A stretch of 26,609 bases of DNA from a virus. Lineage: Duplodnaviria > Heunggongvirae > Uroviricota > Caudoviricetes. Positions within the stretch are counted from its first letter, which is position 1. Every line of letters starts with the position of its first letter. Position numbers and translations under genes: made by a program. This document shows positions 1,462-26,609 of the stretch, piece by piece. Below the pieces are notes generated by a model. The model searched no databases, was not told the DNA's origin, and worked only from the letters and a program-made list of their open reading frames with translations. The DNA lies in IMG/VR virus record IMGVR_UViG_2648501334_000005; one strand, given 5' to 3'.

Positions 1462-5142
<3,681 letters not shown>

Positions 5143-5168
<26 letters not shown>

Positions 5169-5688
5169 TCAGCAACCCCGGTATCAGTTCATCCAGCGCG
5201 GCTGCTTTGTTCATGGCTTTGATGATATCCCGTTTCAGGAAATCAATATGCCGGTTATCCAGCTCAGGAAAACGTCGCTGCACCGACAGAGGAATACCGT
5301 CGAGAATACTGGATATTTCCCTTGCTATACGCGACAGCACGAAAGTACAGAATGCGGTTTCCACCACTTCAGCCGATTCTTTGGCATTTTTCAGTTCCTG
5401 CGCCGTCGCCTGAGCACGGGTCAGGCGATGGCGCTCAAATTCAAGTGTTCCGGGGTGAAGATCTGCCTCGCTGGCCAGCCGCAGTTCTTCAACCTCCCGG
5501 CGCAGCTTTTCGTTCTCAATTTCAGCATCCCTTTCGGCATACCATTTTATGACGGCGGCAGAATCATAAAGCACCTCATTACCCTTGCCACCGCCTCGCA
5601 GAACGGGCATTCCCTGCTCCTGCCAGTTCTGAATGGTACGGATACTCGCACCGAAAATATCAGCCAGCTGCTTTTTGTTGACTTCCAT
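5143..5688 (-). CDS. Nu1: Terminase small subunit Nu1, 181 aa
   Basis: Track ORF. MEVNKKQLADIFGASIRTIQNWQEQGMPVLRGGGKGNEVLYDSAAVIKWYAERD... matches lambda gpNu1 (winged-helix N-terminus). Confidence 0.95.
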
Positions 5689-5699
5689 TGTTCATTCCA

Positions 5700-5880
5700 C
5701 GGACAAAAACAGAGAAAGGAAACGACAGAGGCCAAAAAGCCCGTTTTCAGCATCTGTCGTTTCCTTTCTTTTCAGGGGGTGTTTTAAATAAAAACATTAA
5801 GTTACGGCGAAGAAGAACGGAAACGCCTTAAACCGGAAAATTTTCATAAATAGCGAAAACCCGCGCGCCTTCCGCCCCGT
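5700..5880. promoter_or_regulatory. cos: cos site: lambda-like cosB (terminase/IHF binding region) plus a cosN-equivalent 12-mer at 5866-5877
   Basis: Minus-strand reading of 5700-5865 is almost identical to the lambda left end just inside cosN (CGCGGGTTTTCGCTATTTATGAAAATTTTCCGGTTTAAGGCGTTTCCGTTCTTCTTCG...), immediately upstream of Nu1. The 12-mer at the cosN position reads GGGCGGAAGGCG on the minus strand, versus lambda GGGCGGCGACCT. Confidence 0.8.
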
Positions 5881-5948
5881 AGCCTGCCGGATCGCCGGAA
5901 AGGACCCGCAAAGGTGAGAATAATTATCACTTGCATTAATATCCGGCT

Positions 5949-6120
5949 TCTTCCACCATCGCACCGGACGGGCGACTATGAGGGACAAAAACCGCGCACC
6001 ATAAACGCGGTAAAAACCCGGTGTGCATCGTTTTTGATTATTCCCACACACTCGCGCAGAAGGAGTTCCCCGTCGGGCTACGGTCATGGTTAATGCGGGA
6101 ATACAGCGACGATACAGCGC
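5949..6120. repeat. Direct repeat copy A (~172 bp), left flank of the AT-rich cassette
   Basis: Aligns by eye with 7734-7904 at roughly 85-90% identity in the same orientation, with shared blocks such as GGTAAAAACCCGGTGTGCATCGTTTTTGATTATT and AGGAGTTCCCCGTCGGGCTACGGTCATGGTTAATGCGGGAATAC. Confidence 0.75.
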
Positions 6121-6236: not shown

Positions 6237-6686
6237 CTATTTAATTAGTGATGCTGCGTATTCGATTAGATATAACTTAGGTGCCAGCCAAATTTTTAAC
6301 CATGTCATATTGGCTACTACAGAAATAATAAAACTGAACCATAGAATAAAAACTGCTACTAATGGCAAGACAAAACCACTTAACCTACCGTCACTTTCCC
6401 AAATCATAGTCGGTTTGTATTTAGGCTGTCCATTATCACATGAGCGTCCTTCATTATCGAACTTACCAATTTCAACTTTTTTGCACTGTTTCTTCATAAA
6501 CCAAATAACCAGCGGGATTGTTGAAATGGCTATTAATGTTTTAATCAGGCTATCAACCATATTCCATACCAGCAACTGATGAACAACATCCGGAATCTGA
6601 GCCTGACTGAATGCAATGGCGGAATCAATTCCATCGCTGGCCTTCTTCAATAAATCAACAAGAATTTTATTTGCTTCTTCTTGCAT
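6237..6686 (-). CDS. Hypothetical small membrane protein, 149 aa, two predicted TM helices; second gene of the AT-rich cassette
   Basis: Track ORF with ATG at 6686..6684. Hydrophobic stretches LIKTLIAISTIPLVIWFM and LSGFVLPLVAVFILWFSFIISVVANM. Visibly AT-rich compared with the flanking lambda-like DNA. No family recognised. Confidence 0.6.
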   Translation of the reverse strand: MQEEANKILVDLLKKASDGIDSAIAFSQAQIPDVVHQLLVWNMVDSLIKTLIAISTIPLVIWFMKKQCKKVEIGKFDNEGRSCDNGQPKYKPTMIWESDGRLSGFVLPLVAVFILWFSFIISVVANMTWLKIWLAPKLYLIEYAASLIK

Positions 6687-6810: not shown

Positions 6811-7671
6811 TTAGTTATGTAACTGCTTCCGGAATACAACAGCCGACGTGCTACAACGTAAAATTCGCTTGATTGTGGCAGTTGAGGAAACAGACTTGCA
6901 TTTCTCAACATCATCAATAATGACCACATCCGGTACAGGAATGACGCGGGTATGCAATGTTTTTGCACTAATAACATCACAGCCATTCAGTGGTCGAATA
7001 TCTGCATCTTCAGGCACTACCAGAAGCACACGTTTTTCCGGTGCAGAAAAGCCAGCAGCAAGAGTGCGTGACAATAAAGTCATTCCGCTGCGTGGCTTCA
7101 TACAAATTTCAGAAATATGATTCTTTTCGTCCAAATGATGCTGGACATCATTTTTATCATCACTCAACAACTCTGCTGTTAATACAATCCCTGCTGTCTC
7201 AGATTTCCAGGAAATGCTGATATCCTGATCATCTGCATCAACATCATATTTCATCGAGTAAGGACTAAAGCTACGTCCAACGAACGCATCATTTACCAGT
7301 ACACGCCCACCCTGTCTGACCTGAAAGTCAACGCGCCCTGAAAGCTGATTTGCTGTTACAAGCAATGCCTTTTTTCTTTTTGTTTTATTGCTCATTGCCA
7401 CCAACTGTTCAGCCATCTCTCTTGTCACACTACCAGAAACTCTTTCTTGAATTTTCACAGAAAATTTTCTGGATGTAGTAGCATCGACATTAAAAAATCT
7501 GGATGTCATCAGGCAGTTATTAACAATTGGCATCAGCTCACTTACGATTGTAAAAAATTCCCGGTAAAGCTCATTTTGCTTTTCAACACACAGCTTTCCA
7601 CAATCGTCCAGCTTACGCTCAAGAGCACTTAACCTTTCCATTATTGAATTAATTTTTTGCAACTCTTTCAT
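6811..7671 (-). CDS. Hypothetical protein, 286 aa, coiled-coil-like N-terminus; first gene of the AT-rich cassette
   Basis: Track ORF 6811..7932 trimmed to ATG 7671..7669 (MKELQKINSIMERLSALERKLDD...), which has an AGGAGG Shine-Dalgarno 5 nt upstream (plus 7677-7682). The upstream extension (MRPWSH...) runs through the repeat and palindrome and is not coding. No family recognised. Confidence 0.65.
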   Translation of the reverse strand: MKELQKINSIMERLSALERKLDDCGKLCVEKQNELYREFFTIVSELMPIVNNCLMTSRFFNVDATTSRKFSVKIQERVSGSVTREMAEQLVAMSNKTKRKKALLVTANQLSGRVDFQVRQGGRVLVNDAFVGRSFSPYSMKYDVDADDQDISISWKSETAGIVLTAELLSDDKNDVQHHLDEKNHISEICMKPRSGMTLLSRTLAAGFSAPEKRVLLVVPEDADIRPLNGCDVISAKTLHTRVIPVPDVVIIDDVEKCKSVSSTATIKRILRCSTSAVVFRKQLHN

Positions 7672-7694
7672 CAAAACCTCCTGACAAAGATACC

Positions 7695-7712
7695 GTGCGA
7701 CCACGGTCGCAC
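7695..7712. promoter_or_regulatory. sopC-like 18-bp palindrome GTGCGACCACGGTCGCAC, copy 1 (candidate SopB centromere site)
   Basis: Near-perfect inverted repeat with arms TGCGACC/GGTCGCA, differing in one arm position from the F sopC core TGGGACCACGGTCCCA as I recall it. Lies 24 bp upstream of the 286-aa gene start. Confidence 0.5.
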
Positions 7713-7733
7713 GCTCCTGAATACATGCCCTGT

Positions 7734-7904
7734 TTCTTCCACCCTCGCACAGGACTGGCGAGCATGAGGGACAAACCCGCGAATCATTAGCACGGTAAAA
7801 ACCCGGTGTGCATCGTTTTTGATTATTTCCGCACACTCGCGCATAGGAGTTCCCCGTCGGGCTACGGTCATGGTTAATGCGGGAATACGGCGACGATGCA
7901 GCGC
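7734..7904. repeat. Direct repeat copy B (~171 bp), right flank of the AT-rich cassette
   Basis: Partner of 5949-6120. Bracketed by palindrome copies 1 and 2. Confidence 0.75.
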
Positions 7905-7914
7905 GGAATTTAGC

Positions 7915-7932
7915 GTGCGACCACGGTCGCAC
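7915..7932. promoter_or_regulatory. sopC-like 18-bp palindrome GTGCGACCACGGTCGCAC, copy 2
   Basis: Identical to copy 1. Lies between repeat B and the DUF4406-like gene. Confidence 0.5.
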
Positions 7933-9603: not shown

Positions 9604-10680
9604 TTACTCAAATAACTTTTTCACTTCATCAACTGTCTGAAGATAACGTTCGCCCTCAATCTCAATACCTATTGCCTGACGCCCTAACTTCAGCGCAGCT
9701 TTAATAGTTGAGCCTGATCCCATAAAGAAATCGGCAACGATATCTCCGGGGCGTGAACTACTCTTTATAATATGTTCCATCATCGCTGCAGGTTTTTCAC
9801 ATGGGTGCTTGCCAGGATAATATTGCACAGGAGGAAACTCCCATACATCGGTATAAGGTACATCAGCAGTAACATGAAATGGACGGCGTAAATTTTCATA
9901 CTGAGCCTTCAAATCATCATACTGCTTCTTTACTTCCTCATAATGCAATTTCAGATCGCTATAACGCTTTTCATGTTCTGAATAATCAACATTAAAAGGA
10001 TATGGACACGGGACACCGAGTGAATCTGCCTTCCTGCGAAATAATTCGCATAGTTTATTAAAATCAATTAATGATGGAAGCCGCCACTGCGAATAAGAAA
10101 ACCAGTGTGAACACATCTGCTTTCCTGTCGCTGAATTAATGTCTGCGGCTGATATATCTAACTGACGGCGAGCCAGCGAAAAAGCATCAATTAGTGGAGA
10201 AAAAATATTTTTTCTTAAATCTGCACATTTTGAAGCATAACCTGACTGACCTTTAGCATAACCTGACGCGCCGTAATGCTCTGCAAATAATATTCTTTCA
10301 GTAGCAGGAAAATAAGCCCTTAAACTTTCTTTATGACAACCGCGCCACATACCACTGGGTTTAGCCCAAATGATATGGTTCAGAACATTGAAACGGTCGC
10401 GAGTTAATAATTCAATTTTTGACGCAAGGCGAGAGCCGGTAAACATATACAGGCTGCCATTAGGGGCCAATATCCGCCAAAATTCTGCCAAAAATTCGTC
10501 AATCCACCCCAAAAAGTCAGCATCGCTATCCCACTGGTTATCCCATGCGTTAGCCTTTACGCCGAAGTATGGTGGGTCTGTTGCAATCAAATTGACCGAG
10601 TTATCAGGGATGGTTTTGATAAATTGCAGAGAATCTGCGCAAACGAGTTGTGCGCCATGAATATTAGTGGTTTTGAACAT
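9604..10680 (-). CDS. DNA methyltransferase (N6-adenine or N4-cytosine, beta-class motif order), probable orphan MTase, 358 aa
   Basis: Track ORF 9604..10725 trimmed to ATG 10680..10678 (MFKTTNIHGAQLVCADSL...). DPPY motif (IATDPPYFG) near the N-terminus and an AdoMet-binding FxGxG motif (DFFMGSGST) near the C-terminus. No adjacent restriction enzyme gene. Confidence 0.85.
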   Translation of the reverse strand: MFKTTNIHGAQLVCADSLQFIKTIPDNSVNLIATDPPYFGVKANAWDNQWDSDADFLGWIDEFLAEFWRILAPNGSLYMFTGSRLASKIELLTRDRFNVLNHIIWAKPSGMWRGCHKESLRAYFPATERILFAEHYGASGYAKGQSGYASKCADLRKNIFSPLIDAFSLARRQLDISAADINSATGKQMCSHWFSYSQWRLPSLIDFNKLCELFRRKADSLGVPCPYPFNVDYSEHEKRYSDLKLHYEEVKKQYDDLKAQYENLRRPFHVTADVPYTDVWEFPPVQYYPGKHPCEKPAAMMEHIIKSSSRPGDIVADFFMGSGSTIKAALKLGRQAIGIEIEGERYLQTVDEVKKLFE

Positions 10681-10815
10681 AGCTATTATTTTTTTGCCTG
10701 GGTAAGCTAACCCGGCGATGCGCATCGCGGGTGGGCTTTAGGTTCAGCCTATAGCTCTGGCATGGGTTGACCGCAGGACAAGCTGCAACTTGTCCTGCGC
10801 CCACTTTTCAGGCAC

Positions 10816-13105: not shown

Positions 13106-13855
13106 TTACTTAACCCAATTAACTACACCGCCAGCGGCCACAACCGCCCTTTCACAGTCACGCTCATATCTCAAAGGTTGAAATACACCATCAATAAAAT
13201 ATTTATCTCCACCAAACGCTGCAGGAAGTGAAACAGAAAACTGAATATAACCATCCGGAGTTACCGGAGAGTTGCCAGCCAGTCTACGCAACACAGCCTT
13301 AACCGCCTCAATACGGTCATCATCGCAATTTTCCAGCGTATCTATGCGATCGAGCATGATGATGGCGTTATCAATATCAGGATTGCCGGTCCACTCATTA
13401 CCGCGATTGGATTCGGCAGCCTGGTTGCCGTGTACTGTTTGATTCTCGGCTTTACCCAGTCTGTCGTCGCTGCATGAATGCCCTTCCAGCCAGGCCAATG
13501 CTTGTCGCATGAAATACGCAATATGTTTGCCGTGGTAATCGTCTTCATCGATGTGAAAAGCGATACTGCGGATGTATTCAATTGCGTTTTCAATGGCCTC
13601 CGGCGTTATCGGCGCTGGCGGCGCAGCGAATAGATATCCGCCAAAATCAGGAAGCTCTCCAATGGCCTGTACGAACTTTTGTTTGCCTACGTCAATTCCT
13701 AATGGGTAGTGAGCTATAATCTTTGCCACTGGCTCTGCTTCCAGCGAGGCTAACGCTATTTCATAAGCCCGGCGCTCAATATTGTCTCGCACGTCCAGGC
13801 TGCCTATACGCTCTTTGATTTCTTTAATCAGTTCTTTGTCGGTAAAAGTAGTCAT
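13106..13855 (-). CDS. Hypothetical protein, 249 aa
   Basis: Track ORF, long and uninterrupted. No family recognised. Confidence 0.5.
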   Translation of the reverse strand: MTTFTDKELIKEIKERIGSLDVRDNIERRAYEIALASLEAEPVAKIIAHYPLGIDVGKQKFVQAIGELPDFGGYLFAAPPAPITPEAIENAIEYIRSIAFHIDEDDYHGKHIAYFMRQALAWLEGHSCSDDRLGKAENQTVHGNQAAESNRGNEWTGNPDIDNAIIMLDRIDTLENCDDDRIEAVKAVLRRLAGNSPVTPDGYIQFSVSLPAAFGGDKYFIDGVFQPLRYERDCERAVVAAGGVVNWVK

Positions 13856-13858
13856 GTG

Positions 13859-14146
13859 TTAGTCCTCATCCACTTCAACGCCATCTTTCAGCGTGATGCC
13901 GTGCCAATCATCAGCCCAACTGGTTAGCCCTGGCGCATCAATGCTAGGCATATAGACGCTTGCAGTGTGGTAGCCCTTATCGTTATCAATGCTGGCAACG
14001 TGCTCACCGTTGTATGCGCTCAGCGTGTCCAGGACGCTATAAAACTTTCCTCCGGCTGCCCTGAAATCCTTTACAGCCTTCACAAGGCGATTCCACGCTT
14101 TTTCCTGTTCCGGCGTCAGGTCGACTAATTCCTGCAAAGTTGCCAT
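13859..14146 (-). CDS. Hypothetical small acidic protein, 95 aa
   Basis: Track ORF, tightly packed with its neighbours. No family recognised. Confidence 0.45.
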   Translation of the reverse strand: MATLQELVDLTPEQEKAWNRLVKAVKDFRAAGGKFYSVLDTLSAYNGEHVASIDNDKGYHTASVYMPSIDAPGLTSWADDWHGITLKDGVEVDED

Positions 14147-14147
14147 A

Positions 14148-14660
14148 TCACTCTCCTTTGATGCGAATGCCAGCGGCGCGGATTGCAGCGATGACTTCAG
14201 AAACTTTGTATGCCATTACCGTTTGGTAATCATCGTGAAAATCTGTTCGATGAAGCATGCTGCTACGTTCCGGGAGCAGTATTTCCCGCTCCTCCAGTTC
14301 TGCTACGCGCTGTTTTGCAGCATCCAGCTCAATCGACAATTTTTCCAACTGCTCTTTATGCTTCTTGTATTCCTGATATGCGTGCCAAGACTGACCTTTG
14401 CGCACACTATCAGTGATATCAGTAATCTGTTCTGGTGTTAGCGTGGTCAGTGGCTGTGATGGGAAAATAAGCACTTTACCGGAATCCCAATCAAAACCAG
14501 CGTGAATTGACTGAACCTCAACTGAAGGTGTTGAACCAATGCTGCCAGGCGAATGAACAACGATTGTTACATCCATATCGCGACGATGGCTGTGGTTGTT
14601 GGACAAAATACGATTCAACAAAATACGATTCACCAACTCAGAAAATTTAGAAAATTTCAT
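14148..14660 (-). CDS. Hypothetical protein, 170 aa (start may instead be the internal Met at about 14576)
   Basis: Track ORF. The 5' part contains a tandem 15-bp repeat. No family recognised. Confidence 0.45.
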   Translation of the reverse strand: MKFSKFSELVNRILLNRILSNNHSHRRDMDVTIVVHSPGSIGSTPSVEVQSIHAGFDWDSGKVLIFPSQPLTTLTPEQITDITDSVRKGQSWHAYQEYKKHKEQLEKLSIELDAAKQRVAELEEREILLPERSSMLHRTDFHDDYQTVMAYKVSEVIAAIRAAGIRIKGE

Positions 14661-18280: not shown

Positions 18281-21200
18281 ATGACATTAAACGATTTCTA
18301 TGCGGATCGCTTTGGCAGCGATCCGTTCTCGCTAATTGAAGCAGCACGGGATGAACTAACCGAGCTGGCACAGATGGCTGGTATCAACTGGCCTGCCTGT
18401 TCCGACAACATCCAACTCAACCCTCGCGGGGGGGTTGAGCGTTACTCTTCATACAATAAAACATCTCCAGAAGCTCTCGAAAAGAGCCTGAAAGGACGCG
18501 TAGAAATTTACTCCAGGCTGGAACACAGCAAAGGGATTGATTACCCGTTCATTAACTTCGTCCATAAAGGCAGCGATGCTGGCTCATGGAGCGGTTTCTC
18601 CTTCCTGTTTTCTGAATATCGCCGTGAGCAACAACGGAATAATGCGACCGTGGTCGCACAACCGGAAGAAGAACGGGAAAGAATAGAACGTCAGGCCGAA
18701 GCACGTCGTCGCCGTGAAGAACAAAAACGAATTAATGACCTGAAAAACAACCAAATGGACCATGAACGTTTGCTGGGATGGCTGGCATTCCACAGCGCGT
18801 GGGAACATGCTCCGGCTGAAGACGGCTCATGGCCATATGCGATTAAAAAAGGTATTCGTGACGTTTTTAGTTCATGTGATGTGCGTCGCGTGACCAGTCA
18901 CGACAGTGCGAAATGGAGCCGGGGGCCAACCACATATATGGCTATCCCTCTGGCTCACCTGGACGGTCGTTATGATGGTCGTATTGTGGGTTGGCAGCGA
19001 ATCGACAAACAAGGTGGGAAATACCAGACCAGCGCAGTAACCAGCGGCGATTTCGTCGGTGCCTGCTTTGTTATCGGTGAGCTGAAAGGGGCGCAAAACA
19101 TCGCTGTTACAGAAGGTTTTGCTACTGGTGCATCCATCTGGCTTGCCACGAAAAAAGATAAACGCTTTGACGCTGTGGTTGTCGCTGTATCCGCTAACAA
19201 CATGGTTCATGTTGTGGAACAACTGGTAAACATGTACCCGGCGGCAAAAATCACCTGCGCACTGGATAATGACCGGAAATCTGCCACAGAAGGAAAAGGG
19301 AATACAGGCCTGCGGACTGGCTATGAAATCTTATCGAAATTCAACGATGTCCGCTGCGTCTATCCAACTTTTGAAGACGATCCGCAAATGGAGTGCAGTG
19401 ACTTCAACGACCTGCACAAACTACGTGGACTTCGTGAAACAGCACGTCAACTATTTGCAACAGCAAACCGCCTGAAAACCGGTACTGATTTGCTATCTCT
19501 GACGCTCAACCGCCTGAAGACAATTAAGCGGGATAACCGTCGTACTTTTGCCAAAGAGCTGCTGAGAGCGGTGGATATTGGCATGCTAACCTGTCCGGTT
19601 CCTAACAGTCCGTCAGATTTATTTAACATGTTCTGCATCGTTCTGCGTGAAATGGGACTGGAAAATATCTATCGCGCTACGGTAAAAGACCACATTGCCC
19701 GTCGCCTGAATAAAAAGTGCCGTATTGCCCAGGCTCCGCGCTCTTTCAGCGAACGCATAACTGATCCCAATAAACGCCCTCAACATATCACCTATAAGCG
19801 TTTTGAAACTTCGGTAATGACCGATGATGTCCTGAAGTACGTGCAATCACTACAGGGGATAGTCATCGTCCGTGCTGGTATGGGTTCCGGCAAATCTACT
19901 GGATTGTTACGACCGTTAATGCATAGCTCAGAACGTGGTATCTCTGTTGCTCACCGTGTCTCCCTTATTGGTGGCCTGTGGGAAATGATGACAGAAGGAA
20001 AAGGTGTAAAAGCCGATATCCTGCACTATCAGGATCCTGGCTATCAGGAAATGGCTCCATACGCCAGTAAACTGACCATCTGCATAAACTCGATTGTTAA
20101 AAACTGCTGGCAACCGTTGATGCGCCAGCACGACTATTTTGGCTTTGACGAGGCCACACAAGGGCTACGTGCCGTTCTTTCCGGTCGGGCTATGGAAAAC
20201 CCGGTGGCTGTATTCAATACGCTAATTGACGCGCTGGCCAGAACGGAACAACACCCAATCATGGTAGATGCTGATGCGAACGATCTGCTGGTTGACCTGG
20301 CTGAACTGGCTATGAAACGCCGTGAAGAACTAGGTTTACCGGCATGGCTGCAGATCCACGTAATTGAATTACCTGTTGATGTTCGCAACCGCGAAACAGG
20401 TGAGCCAATCCGGGTTTTTTATACAGAAAAAGATCGCATCATGACCGAGGTGGTGAAAGCTGTATCGGATGGCGAAAAAATCATGTTGGCCACCGACAGC
20501 TCCACCTTTGCAGAAGATGTGACAGCCACCCTGAGAATGCATTTTCCTGGTAAGAAATTTCTGTGTGTAAACCAGAAAAACAAACCAGAGCCAGAAGTTG
20601 AAGCATTTACCAATCAACCGAAAAAGATGGTCAAAAAATACGACGGCCTGATTTATAGCCCGTCTATTTCATCCGGCGTGTCGATTGAGCAAAAACATTT
20701 TGACCGTCATTTCGGCATGTTCTGTGGTGAAGTTGTACCCAGCGACGCAGTGCAAATGCTACGCCGCGACCGTACAGCAAAAGAATTTATTATCGGCTTT
20801 GATAAAGCTCGTGCAAAACGTGAAACTGACCCGCAAAAAATAGAACGAGCATTCGCCCAGGCATTGCTTGCTACCGCAGGTATGAACGGTGAACTGACGG
20901 ATGTCGTTTTCGATGGCGACCGTATATCAATGGGGGTGGCCAATACCGACTTTACCAGGATGAAAATTAAAGCAGCCGCAATTGAAGCGACTGCGCGTAA
21001 CGACTACGCCAGCAACATGATCTGCATCATGCACAGCGACGGTTATAAGGTATCGCCGCTGGCCACCGATTATGCTGCGAATGATATCGGTAAAGATCTG
21101 CGTAAAGAAGCGCGGGATATTGTGTGGGAACAGACACTGGATCTGCACCTCAATACAGAAACTCCACAAGAATCAGAGCGTGAAGAACTGCTAAAAAAAC

Positions 21201-22276
21201 GCGCGCTGACGCTTGAAGAACAGGCAAAACTTGTCCGCTGGGATATTGAAAACGAACTGAAACTACCGGTTGAAGAAGGCACGCTAAAATTCTATTTCGA
21301 TGGTGCTCGAGACAAAGTTCGCCGCTATGAAACAATGCTTTTAGATGAGGTAACAGCTCGTCGTTACGACCGGGAAGAAGCAGCCATCAATTTTACCTAC
21401 GCATACCGTCAGGCGGGACAGTGGCAATATTTTGTAGTGACCGCGATGACTCGCGAGCAGGCTGATGATGTCTTTAAAACTAAATTCCCTGGAATAATCG
21501 ATCACAAGGTAAAAGCTACTCCTACTGTTGAAGTCGGGGCGCGCGGTTTCTATGCGCTTAAATCAGCAACTCTCCGGCAGTACTTTATCGACTGCGGTAT
21601 CAACCCTGAGACTATGACCGGCGAGGCGACTCAGGAGCGTCTCAAATTCGCTCGAGATAACCTCATGACAGCCGAACGCCGTGACCTGTTGAATAACGTT
21701 CTGCACATTGGTGGTTTTATGACGCCAAAAGGGAAGCCTAAAGTGCCGGAAGCGTTGTTTAAAAACATTTGCGACTCTCTTGGCCTTAAAACAGGTAAAC
21801 GTCGCGGCAGAGACGGCGATAAGCGTCCAACCTTGCGTTTTGTTGAGCCTGAATCAGCGGCATTTATGCTGGATATTCTTGTTCAGCGTCAGAAAGATGG
21901 CCTAACACTAAAAACGCGTAAAGCCGAGAAGACAGCCATCGAAATGGATCGCGATTTGGATCTCAATATATATATGGATGATAAAACGCGATCCACAAAC
22001 GAGCAGGTTCAAAACGCCCCTCATTCAGTAATTTCTGAGGCTTTGGCCGTGTTGCCAGTGGCTGTACCTGAGTCCTGGGCGATGAGTGCGCTTTCCAGTG
22101 AGGAGTTGGCCACTATGTCATCATGGTCATCAGCCAGCATAGCTATGACGTTTGCATCCCTGTACCTCACAGAGTTCATGGATCACCTTTCCAGCAATGA
22201 GCTGCGGCGGTTACGTGAATACATTACGGGGAATAGCTCATGCAGCTACGAAGAGCAGGGTGCTTTCTATGGGTAA
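18281..22276 (+). CDS. repA: Replication protein RepA, multidomain primase (TOPRIM) - helicase, 1331 aa
   Basis: Track ORF. TOPRIM-like motifs NIAVTEGFATGASI and CALDNDRKS, Walker A GMGSGKST and Walker B-like FGFDEAT. Size and position next to cB match N15 RepA (about 1324 aa as I recall). Confidence 0.9.
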   Translation: MTLNDFYADRFGSDPFSLIEAARDELTELAQMAGINWPACSDNIQLNPRGGVERYSSYNKTSPEALEKSLKGRVEIYSRLEHSKGIDYPFINFVHKGSDAGSWSGFSFLFSEYRREQQRNNATVVAQPEEERERIERQAEARRRREEQKRINDLKNNQMDHERLLGWLAFHSAWEHAPAEDGSWPYAIKKGIRDVFSSCDVRRVTSHDSAKWSRGPTTYMAIPLAHLDGRYDGRIVGWQRIDKQGGKYQTSAVTSGDFVGACFVIGELKGAQNIAVTEGFATGASIWLATKKDKRFDAVVVAVSANNMVHVVEQLVNMYPAAKITCALDNDRKSATEGKGNTGLRTGYEILSKFNDVRCVYPTFEDDPQMECSDFNDLHKLRGLRETARQLFATANRLKTGTDLLSLTLNRLKTIKRDNRRTFAKELLRAVDIGMLTCPVPNSPSDLFNMFCIVLREMGLENIYRATVKDHIARRLNKKCRIAQAPRSFSERITDPNKRPQHITYKRFETSVMTDDVLKYVQSLQGIVIVRAGMGSGKSTGLLRPLMHSSERGISVAHRVSLIGGLWEMMTEGKGVKADILHYQDPGYQEMAPYASKLTICINSIVKNCWQPLMRQHDYFGFDEATQGLRAVLSGRAMENPVAVFNTLIDALARTEQHPIMVDADANDLLVDLAELAMKRREELGLPAWLQIHVIELPVDVRNRETGEPIRVFYTEKDRIMTEVVKAVSDGEKIMLATDSSTFAEDVTATLRMHFPGKKFLCVNQKNKPEPEVEAFTNQPKKMVKKYDGLIYSPSISSGVSIEQKHFDRHFGMFCGEVVPSDAVQMLRRDRTAKEFIIGFDKARAKRETDPQKIERAFAQALLATAGMNGELTDVVFDGDRISMGVANTDFTRMKIKAAAIEATARNDYASNMICIMHSDGYKVSPLATDYAANDIGKDLRKEARDIVWEQTLDLHLNTETPQESEREELLKKRALTLEEQAKLVRWDIENELKLPVEEGTLKFYFDGARDKVRRYETMLLDEVTARRYDREEAAINFTYAYRQAGQWQYFVVTAMTREQADDVFKTKFPGIIDHKVKATPTVEVGARGFYALKSATLRQYFIDCGINPETMTGEATQERLKFARDNLMTAERRDLLNNVLHIGGFMTPKGKPKVPEALFKNICDSLGLKTGKRRGRDGDKRPTLRFVEPESAAFMLDILVQRQKDGLTLKTRKAEKTAIEMDRDLDLNIYMDDKTRSTNEQVQNAPHSVISEALAVLPVAVPESWAMSALSSEELATMSSWSSASIAMTFASLYLTEFMDHLSSNELRRLREYITGNSSCSYEEQGAFYG
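18642..18659. promoter_or_regulatory. sopC-like palindrome ATGCGACCGTGGTCGCAC, copy 5 (17/18), inside repA coding sequence
   Basis: Same TGCGACC/GGTCGCA arms. Encodes ATVVAQ in RepA. Confidence 0.45.
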
Positions 22277-24481: not shown

Positions 24482-26383
24482 TTATCCGAAATATGTCAGC
24501 CATGCTAACTGCATTGCTGATATAGGGCTGTTTGCACTGCCGGACCAAGCATAATTCTGGCCATTATAATGAAACTCAACAACGTATGAGCCATCACCAA
24601 TATTTCTCACAGGCTTAAATACCGGCTTAGATACAGGTGAAGAAGGCGCGGGCGGTTGCTGTTCTTCTACGCTCTCTTCCTCTTCCTCTTCCTCTTCCTC
24701 TATCTCAATTTCGTCGTCATCCAGATCGTCATCCTCTGATAATTCATCCGTCTGTTCAGGTATTGCTTCCAGCTCTTCTTCGTCAGGCATAACGATTTCT
24801 GGAGAATCTATTTTCAGCTGCCATTGTCCATTTTCGCCAACAAATTGCCCCAGAGCATCAGCAGCAAATTCCAGGTATCGACTAATCATTGTAGGGCTAA
24901 ATTTGAATGCTCTTAGAGTGCTGTTCGTGATTTTTATAGAGGGGTCCTGCTCTACCAGCTGCTTAACTGTGTTATGCAGACGAACTCCGGCATCTCCTCT
25001 GGCGAATCCTGGCATTTCGTCATCAAGCTGCTGCAATGCTTCCAGCCTGGTATTTTCGTTTCCAGTATTTGGCCTCCATGTCTTTGAGAAGTTGGCCAGC
25101 TTGAATTGCTTATAGTGTAATTGAGTGTTTTCATCGTCATGGCCTAAAATTTCCATAAAGAAAACATCCTCATCTACGTTTTTCCAACGAGGATCTACGC
25201 GGAAAAACATTTCATACGCAATACGGGCATAAATAGCACGACTATCTTTATAAACACGGCGGTCATCTTTGAAAAATGATTTAACCCACGGGTTAAAAGC
25301 CTTTGCTAATATGGCATTAATCCGTCCGTTTTCAGAGCGTGTGTCGTTATCTCCATAACCTTTAACGACATCATCAAAATCAGATGCTGCTGGGCATGAG
25401 CGAAGTACATTTATTAAATAAACAAATGTTTTTGCTTCGCATAATGTATATATTTTTCTGGTTATATCATCAGAAGTTCTTTTTTTTGCTTGGCCTAAAA
25501 AATCAACGGTATACTTACCAGAAACAGTAAATGTACCTTGATACATAATCTCAATCATTCGTCTTCCAGACAATGCAGCAAGTGCAAATGCCAAAGGAGC
25601 CATACCTGAACGAGTGTTTAGATTATTTAATGTAGCAGGGCTATTTATAATATCGTAAATAGCTTGCATATATTTAGGGTAATCAATGACCACTACGTTA
25701 CGTTTCTTATTGTGCAGAACGTCTGCCCATCGTTGCTGGATAGATGCGCGTTCGGCAGGGCTTAGTTGAAGATGATAGAGAATCTCATGGTTAACTTTTA
25801 GCTGATTCAACTCCTCAAGTAAGGCAGATCCTTGCTGTAGTAATTTATATAAATAATCGCGCTTATCTTTCCAGTTATCGCTAGTTAAATCAGAAATGGC
25901 GAATTGCCACTCTTTATATTTATTTGATAATTTTAATAACTTATTATGACTTTTGTTATCACCAATTCTGATATTAGATAAATCTTCTGATAAAGGGAGA
26001 ATTAATTTTAATTTTGCCTGTAAAGCTGACATTCTCTGGCGAATATCGGCAGCAGGTAGAGAAAGCCATGATAATAGCTCCTCATTATATAAAGGATACT
26101 TTTCAGATAGGCGATGTATATTTTTTTCAAAGCTATGATGAAGTTTATCATCAAACCGTTTTCTGGCCCTGCTCATATAGGCATTGAATGTGTTGGCTGT
26201 AATTCTTTTTTCTAATCCTTTCCCCCTAAACTTTCGCTTGTCATTAAATAATGCATTTTTAAATTTTAATGCAACAGCTTTTATTTTTTTTGTTTTTTCC
26301 CCTTGAGGACGGTCAGAGTTATCTATTGACTCAACATCGCTAACAAGTGAGTTTATTAATTCACCGATTTTTACTTTGCTCAT
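24482..26383 (-). CDS. telN: Protelomerase (telomere resolvase) TelN, 633 aa
   Basis: Track ORF. MSKVKIGELINSLVSDVESIDNSDRPQGEKTKKIKAVALKFKNALFNDKRKFRGKGLEKRITANTFNAYMSRARKRFDDKLHH... tracks N15 TelN (about 631 aa) as I recall it, including the acidic C-terminal stretch. Strong AGGAGAGG ribosome-binding site. Confidence 0.92.
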   Translation of the reverse strand: MSKVKIGELINSLVSDVESIDNSDRPQGEKTKKIKAVALKFKNALFNDKRKFRGKGLEKRITANTFNAYMSRARKRFDDKLHHSFEKNIHRLSEKYPLYNEELLSWLSLPAADIRQRMSALQAKLKLILPLSEDLSNIRIGDNKSHNKLLKLSNKYKEWQFAISDLTSDNWKDKRDYLYKLLQQGSALLEELNQLKVNHEILYHLQLSPAERASIQQRWADVLHNKKRNVVVIDYPKYMQAIYDIINSPATLNNLNTRSGMAPLAFALAALSGRRMIEIMYQGTFTVSGKYTVDFLGQAKKRTSDDITRKIYTLCEAKTFVYLINVLRSCPAASDFDDVVKGYGDNDTRSENGRINAILAKAFNPWVKSFFKDDRRVYKDSRAIYARIAYEMFFRVDPRWKNVDEDVFFMEILGHDDENTQLHYKQFKLANFSKTWRPNTGNENTRLEALQQLDDEMPGFARGDAGVRLHNTVKQLVEQDPSIKITNSTLRAFKFSPTMISRYLEFAADALGQFVGENGQWQLKIDSPEIVMPDEEELEAIPEQTDELSEDDDLDDDEIEIEEEEEEEEESVEEQQPPAPSSPVSKPVFKPVRNIGDGSYVVEFHYNGQNYAWSGSANSPISAMQLAWLTYFG

Positions 26384-26539: not shown

Positions 26540-26609
26540 TTCTAAAGATCAGCACATAATCCCCCATTATACGCGCGTATAATGGGGGATTATGTGCTGA
26601 TCTTTAGAA
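26540..26609. other. telRL: Telomere resolution site (telRL / tos core): perfect 70-bp palindrome centred on ACGCGCGT
   Basis: 26540-26609 is a perfect inverted repeat, checked base by base, with centre between 26574 and 26575. Core CCATTATACGCGCGTATAATGG matches the N15 telO palindrome as I recall it. It reaches the final base of the window. Confidence 0.9.

Follow-up and report, generated by a model that had tools for sequence, protein, structure and literature searches.

The 26,609-nucleotide stretch of DNA analyzed here (hereafter, the window) very probably carries a functional lambda-type cos in which the right half of cosN is a natural alternative allele, AAGGCG in place of lambda's CGACCT. 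This reading draws on the sequence of the site, its conservation, its recurrence in other genomes and a null result for allele-linked change in the terminase large subunit (TerL), all obtained here, and on the literature for the tolerance of right-half changes and the anchoring role of R3. The original prediction had placed a cosN core that differs from lambda at 5860-5885, with lambda-like cosB and terminase sequences, and had proposed either different cohesive ends or a mutated nicking site that leaves the prophage unpackageable. Reading the minus strand at 5880..5853 (in full, ACGGGGCGGAAGGCGCGCGGGTTTTCGC) bears out the difference, as the window has ACG, GGGCGGAAGGCG and CGCGGGTTTTCGC in succession where lambda has ACG, GGGCGGCGACCT and CGCGGG. 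Over a longer span, minus strand 5910..5850 reads TGCGGGTCCTTTCCGGCGATCCGGCAGGCTACG GGGCGG AAGGCG CGCGGGTTTTCGCTATTTATG, and the same region of lambda reads GGTGATCCGACAGGTTACG GGGCGG CGACCT CGCGGGTTTTCGC. On the minus strand, the 12 bp of the cohesive end occupy 5877..5866, with the variant hexamer at 5871..5866, and the predicted interval correctly brackets both. The features of the packaging region are as follows.

5901..5907, minus strand: cosQ heptamer GGGTCCT, identical to lambda's and at the same offset (-30..-24 from the first cohesive-end base)
5864..5879, minus strand: 16-bp cosN core, CG then GGGCGGAAGGCG then CG, with the flanking CG pairs and bp 1-6 as in lambda
5878/5877 (top strand) and 5866/5865 (bottom strand): predicted nicks, placed by the lambda spacing to R3
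5866..5871, minus strand: variant hexamer, cohesive-end bp 7-12, AAGGCG where lambda has CGACCT
5813..5828, minus strand: cosB R3 (lambda bp 50-65), AGGCGTTTCCGTTCTT, identical to lambda's
5689..5812, minus strand: rest of cosB (the I1, R2 and R1 region), ending at the Nu1 start codon
5143..5688, minus strand: Nu1, terminase small subunit (TerS), 181 aa, Pfam Phage_Nu1 (E=1.3e-95)
3243..5168, minus strand: A, terminase large subunit (TerL), 641 aa, Pfam GpA_ATPase and GpA_nuclease, with a GTG start as in lambda

Five of the 12 cohesive-end bases in the window depart from the lambda allele GGGCGGCGACCT, namely bp 7 C>A, 8 G>A, 9 A>G, 10 C>G and 12 T>G. The claim that six bases had been replaced therefore holds for bp 7, 8, 9, 10 and 12, but not for bp 11, which is C in both phages. 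On either side of the hexamer, bp 1-6 and bp 13-70, R3 included (its position at lambda bp 50-65 is taken from PMC9026076), are identical to lambda, and downstream of bp 70 cosB differs from lambda 7 times within bp 71-190, the total over bp 13-193 being 7 as well; with I1, R2 and R1 taken as one region, 5689..5812 differs from lambda bp 66-190 by six substitutions and one 1-bp deletion. Since five of six adjacent bases are changed against a background divergence of ~4% (P about 6e-7), the hexamer represents a block difference rather than scattered drift. The cos 25-mer is present as a single copy in the window and had 0 matches in 100 shuffles of the sequence. The two-fold symmetry of the 16-bp core extends to 8 of 16 positions in the window, as in mEp213/LLS, compared to 10 of 16 in lambda and N15, and the elements retained in the window are the flanking CG pairs and the G2:C11 pair. 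Both the AAGGCG and the lambda cohesive ends have a G+C content of 10/12, and their nearest-neighbour dG37 values are -17.8 kcal/mol for the window allele and -18.2 kcal/mol for lambda. We also compared the hexamer by hand with an inverted lambda hexamer and rejected that origin, as its reverse complement CGCCTT matches CGACCT at 4/6 positions (1/6 in direct orientation), which is too weak.

The lambda likeness of cosB and the terminase genes stood up at the protein level as well. Nu1 is identical to lambda Nu1 at 170 of 181 residues (93%), including every residue of the DNA-binding domain (residues 1-70), and gpA is identical at 635 of 641 (about 98.9%), with I459V and T532M (lambda residue first) falling inside the nuclease-domain model match. 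None of the head and terminase open reading frames is disrupted in the window, and their likeness to lambda is about 99%. Judged on its sequence, the window site is probably a lambda-like cos in the sense of Feiss et al., with cosQ, the CG pairs and left half, the R3 spacing and the I1-R2-R1 region, and Nu1/gpA all in place.

Published genetics place the altered bases in the tolerant part of cosN. According to Feiss et al. 2015 (PMC4669245), differences at bp 7-12 are common among lambda-like phages, with N15 and phiD326 differing from lambda at bp 9 and 12 and Gifsy-1 at bp 8, 9 and 11, and mutating bp 7-12 has only a minimal effect, in contrast to symmetric changes within bp 1-6, whose effect is severe. 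The same study found that altered right halves are nicked efficiently by TerL-lambda and attributed this tolerance to R3-bound TerS, which anchors TerL for bottom-strand nicking (PMC4669245). The nick-flanking CG pairs are conserved and the 7-bp cosQ is highly conserved, the lambda and N15 terminases have no cosN specificity, and bp 7-12 are interpreted as not being under selection (PMC4669245). The passage of PMC9303873 that cites Vahanian 2017 gives the conserved cosN positions as the first 4 bp plus 2 bp on each side. As read here, the window allele obeys every published cosN constraint and differs only in degree, with 5 changes compared to at most 3 in the described variants. On the other hand, five simultaneous changes go beyond anything tested in the literature we examined, where natural differences number at most 3, and the new sequence GG-CG-CG-CG-GG offers alternative CG registers that may shift the bottom-strand nick.

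We compared the window with the known cos systems. It resembles lambda in cosQ, the CG pairs, bp 1-6, bp 13-70 with R3, the spacing, Nu1 residues 1-70 and gpA, and differs from it in the hexamer and in the carrier, which is a telomere phage-plasmid rather than an integrating prophage. The allele shared by N15, phiD326 and mEp237 (GGGCGGCGTCCG, confirmed from the N15 record) is likewise a natural right-half variant with G at bp 12, and N15 itself shares with the window the linear plasmid-prophage lifestyle and a protelomerase. The N15 allele, however, departs from lambda only at bp 9 and 12, and is followed downstream by CGCAGATTCTCGC and accompanied by a cosB with a single R3 and by a divergent TerS. 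N15-type cos sites are recognized by CGTCCG or CGTCCT, CGCAGATTCTCGC, a single R3 and a gp1-type TerS, and in their place the window has AAGGCG followed by CGCGGGTTTTCGC with lambda-type cosB and Nu1. N15-type right halves were found at 62 loci as CGTCCG and at 14 as CGTCCT (the N15 and mEp237 records included), always with the different downstream sequence. Gifsy-1 and mEp213/LLS (GGGCGGCGCGCT) are natural variants confined to bp 7-12, like the window, but have 2-3 differences from lambda compared to 5, and their head genes are not lambda-like. The "Monarch" N15-like prophages (Feiss et al. 2015) resemble the window, by description, in their complex tripartite cosB, and are set apart from it, also by description, by a TerS-Monarch with the N15 recognition helix, as the DNA-binding domain of the window Nu1 is lambda's. 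With the N15-like telomere phages, the window shares both a protelomerase gene and an adjacent tel palindrome, as listed below with the other features of the element.

24482-26383, minus strand: protelomerase, with TelK_N, muzzle, catalytic and stirrup domains (E 1e-50 to 5e-25)
18281-22276, plus strand: replication protein, 1,331 aa
17439-18035, plus strand: CI-like repressor
9604-10725, minus strand: DNA methylase
26540-26609, reaching the last base: perfect telomere palindrome, centered at 26585/26586 between GATCAGCACATAATCCCCCATTATACGC and GCGTATAATGGGGGATTATGTGCTGATC and adjoining the protelomerase gene

The window is an N15-like telomere phage-plasmid with a lambda packaging and head module, and not an integrated lambdoid prophage. 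Escherichia phage PhiR46_1 (PV340565.1) matches it collinearly for about 25.6 kb at 97% nucleotide identity, and the record of this phage annotates telL/telR, ParA/ParB, a CI repressor and a large primase, as well as the complete complement of lambda-type genes for head and tail. The record also gives the host as E. coli ECOR13, and it is on this field that virion propagation rests; its likely source, by a link that we infer, is Brenes & Laub 2025. The ParAB/Sop partition genes lie beyond the bounds of the window and are carried by the collinear PhiR46_1. The window palindrome aligns with the telL site annotated in PhiR46_1, and the end of the window is either a read-through of a hairpin telomere or an uncut telRL site.

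Two other regions of the window stood out. About 1 kb at 13281-14292 is without counterpart in PhiR46_1, which has about 130 bp there, and overlaps the open reading frames at 13106-13855 (no Pfam match) and 13859-14146. A direct repeat of ~190 bp at 5932-6120 and 7718-7904, with copies 79-97% identical, brackets a 1.6-kb cassette of two open reading frames, 6237-6686 (phrog_3054) and 6811-7932 (phrog_2571), which have no assigned function and lie between the lysis genes and cosQ; the cassette resembles a moron-type insertion that sits between duplicated pieces of the late region. The phages 1H12 and 2G7a, which are of similar size and have the lambda allele, were considered as members of the same lineage and set aside, as 1H12 is an integrase-bearing lambdoid and not a telomere phage. 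The 1H12 record (NC_049947.1) starts at position 1 with GGGGCGGCGACCT, one G beyond the lambda cohesive end, and the start was probably chosen by eye and not mapped from the ends.

The cosN of the window and its flanks are identical in PhiR46_1 and in YDC107_1 (CP025712.1), and PhiR46_1 shares cos with the window over at least 45 bp upstream and at least 50 bp downstream; cos is absent from the annotation of its record. We searched complete E. coli genomes with a 51-mer in which every 28-nt seed overlaps the hexamer, and found the AAGGCG version at 167 places in 156 of 5,426 genomes, 17 of them on plasmid records, compared to 7,470 places in 4,114 genomes, 19 on plasmid records, for the lambda-hexamer version. 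AAGGCG accordingly makes up 17 of the 36 plasmid-borne lambda-type cos sites in E. coli and 150 of the 7,601 chromosomal ones (odds ratio 44). In PLSDB, the allele was present in 25 non-mobilizable plasmids, mostly of 42-51 kb, carried by E. coli, Shigella sonnei, E. albertii and E. fergusonii. Most matches to the lambda allele there were fragments the size of a chromosome, small vectors, or lambda DNA of 48.5 kb filed under unrelated genera. Several such "plasmids" of 48,499-48,502 bp with the lambda cos are assigned to Bacillus, Paenibacillus, Stenotrophomonas, Salmonella and others, and are probably lambda control-DNA contamination deposited as plasmids. AAGGCG appears to be the allele that characterizes the lambda-headed telomere phage-plasmids of ~46 kb.

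A complete scan of IMG/VR with the pattern GGGCGG-[not C]NNNNN-CGCGGGTTTT, in which bp 7 is not C, returned 99 contigs, and AAGGCG stood in a true cos context 80 times, in 78 IMG/VR contigs and two PhiR46_1 loci. The 78 contigs comprise at least 35 combinations of left and right flanks and at least three cosB types. Alleles one or two steps away were rare in this bp 7-not-C scan (AAGGCT 1, AAGCGT 1, AGACCT 2 and TGACCT 2), and the 25-nt left flank and 40-nt right flank of the window itself occur with both AAGGCG and CGACCT. When the hexamer was left free (N6), 77 distinct 150-bp cos haplotypes among the matches listed had CGACCT in 71 cases, AAGGCG in 5 and CGACCG in 1. In the same haplotypes, individual sites vary in the cosQ-cosN spacer (-17..-5) and in R3, cosQ is nearly invariant, and the ACG upstream of cosN is invariant, though the search did not demand it. 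All of these allele counts are raw counts over contigs, many of which are near-identical prophages, and the search patterns held the flanks constant. A scan of one genome per species returned one true AAGGCG cos, in Escherichia sp. E1V33, which has small bearing on host range; two matches to the allele in Bryobacterales metagenome-assembled genomes lack a cos context and were dismissed as chance. No record in the phage collection searched starts with GGGCGGAAGGCG, within the papers searchable in full text GGGCGGAAGGCG or its complement occurred only in two unrelated ones, and a literature search on the PhiR phage names returned nothing relevant.

To relate the allele to the enzyme, we took gpA from every locus with enough downstream sequence and kept the proteins at least 90% identical to the window's, which gave 38 linked to AAGGCG and 33 linked to CGACCT. 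No gpA residue tracked the cosN allele among these 38 and 33 proteins; the maximum frequency difference was 0.19, at residue 459, where V and I were each seen with both alleles. In one locus of the commonest other cosB type, IMG/VR 2529292726_000014 (2615-5248), the AAGGCG cos is followed by a chimeric TerS and then a lambda-like TerL. Since the N-terminal DNA-binding domain of this TerS is of the phage-21 type and its C-terminus of the lambda type, the cosN allele is uncoupled from packaging specificity.

On the preferred reading of a functional natural allele, Nu1 and IHF would bind the lambda-like R3/R2/R1 array and so position gpA, which would nick the bottom strand at a set distance from R3, regardless of the bases at bp 7-12, and the top strand at the conserved half-site between CG and GGGCGG. 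Virion DNA would then have 12-nt 5' overhangs, reading 5'-GGGCGGAAGGCG at the left end and 5'-CGCCTTCCGCCC at the right end, and these ends would be complementary to each other and as G+C-rich as lambda's, but mismatched with lambda ends at 5 of 12 positions. Since the G+C content and duplex stability match, cyclisation should equal lambda's in efficiency. The nick positions and the packaging competence of the element are in this sense predictions from its letters.

Of the two outcomes originally proposed, different cohesive ends are now the predicted one, as the exact hexamer recurs in many independent flanks and in PhiR46_1 with all required elements intact. The other, in which the hexamer damages the site of the bottom-strand nick, so that the prophage cannot be packaged and persists only as a plasmid, seems to us very unlikely. 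It would account for the joint change of five of six bases and the loss of symmetry from 10 to 8 of 16 positions, and the encoded protelomerase and replication protein would allow persistence without packaging. However, a dead site would decay and not spread, so the preservation of the exact hexamer in 156 E. coli genomes, four Escherichia/Shigella species and 78 IMG/VR contigs with varied flanks speaks against it, as do the intact head and terminase genes, the same cos in a phage that lists a propagation host, and the location of the change within bp 7-12, positions of minimal effect that vary naturally (PMC4669245). We consider it slightly less probable again that AAGGCG requires a matching TerL endonuclease variant and is unusable by lambda terminase. 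The window gpA does differ from lambda at about 7 residues, two of them (I459V and T532M) in the nuclease-domain stretch, but no gpA position tracks the allele, the allele occurs beside lambda-type, phage-21-type and a third cosB type, and neither lambda nor N15 terminase discriminates among cosN sequences (PMC4669245). A sequencing or assembly artefact, for which only the local G+C richness could be invoked, is next to impossible, given that hundreds of independent assemblies, made in different laboratories and on different platforms, have the identical sequence. The allele is instead a recurrent variant in relatives, and the novelty implied by the original prediction was overstated: right-half cosN variation is already described and explained, and AAGGCG is already in deposited genomes, including that of the named phage PhiR46_1.

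A further possibility, which is compatible with a functional allele and which we put forward tentatively as being rather improbable, is that the hexamer is one of a few discrete cohesive-end types held uniform by selection. The hexamer varies as a block (CGACCT, AAGGCG and CGACCG in 71, 5 and 1 of the 77 haplotypes among the matches listed) beside a spacer and an R3 that vary by site, the neighbouring alleles number 1-2 each compared to 80 for AAGGCG (two PhiR46_1 loci included), the flanks of the window carry both alleles, and AAGGCG dominates one phage-plasmid lineage; moreover, an end mismatch of 2 bp lowers the viable yield about 4-fold (PMC4669245). Block alleles with very few intermediates sit uneasily with simple neutrality. 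Against this, a concatemer is homozygous for its own cosN mutation, which therefore has no intrinsic cost, the counts are raw with respect to shared ancestry, with many near-identical prophages and flanks set by the search, and the published view is that selection does not act on bp 7-12 (PMC4669245). Our tentative suggestion, for which we would claim no more than a minority chance, is then that the cosN right half is not free to drift and that its discrete types (CGACCT, AAGGCG and CGTCCG/CGTCCT) are selected for end compatibility among recombining lambdoids. If this is true, chromosomes with unlike ends that arise from recombinant concatemers would cyclise poorly, AAGGCG would rank as the second major Escherichia type, characteristic of the lambda-headed telomere phage-plasmid lineage, and its carriers would be partly isolated from lambda-allele phages at the cyclisation step.

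Pipelines that seek the literal lambda 12-mer miss cos in ~3% of complete E. coli genomes and in the phage-plasmid lineage of ~46 kb. With AAGGCG, the lambda-like family gains another natural cohesive-end sequence, an unusually divergent one that accords with the published rule limiting constraint to the cosN left half and the nick-flanking CG pairs. The DNA of phages that carry this allele should not anneal to lambda cohesive ends.
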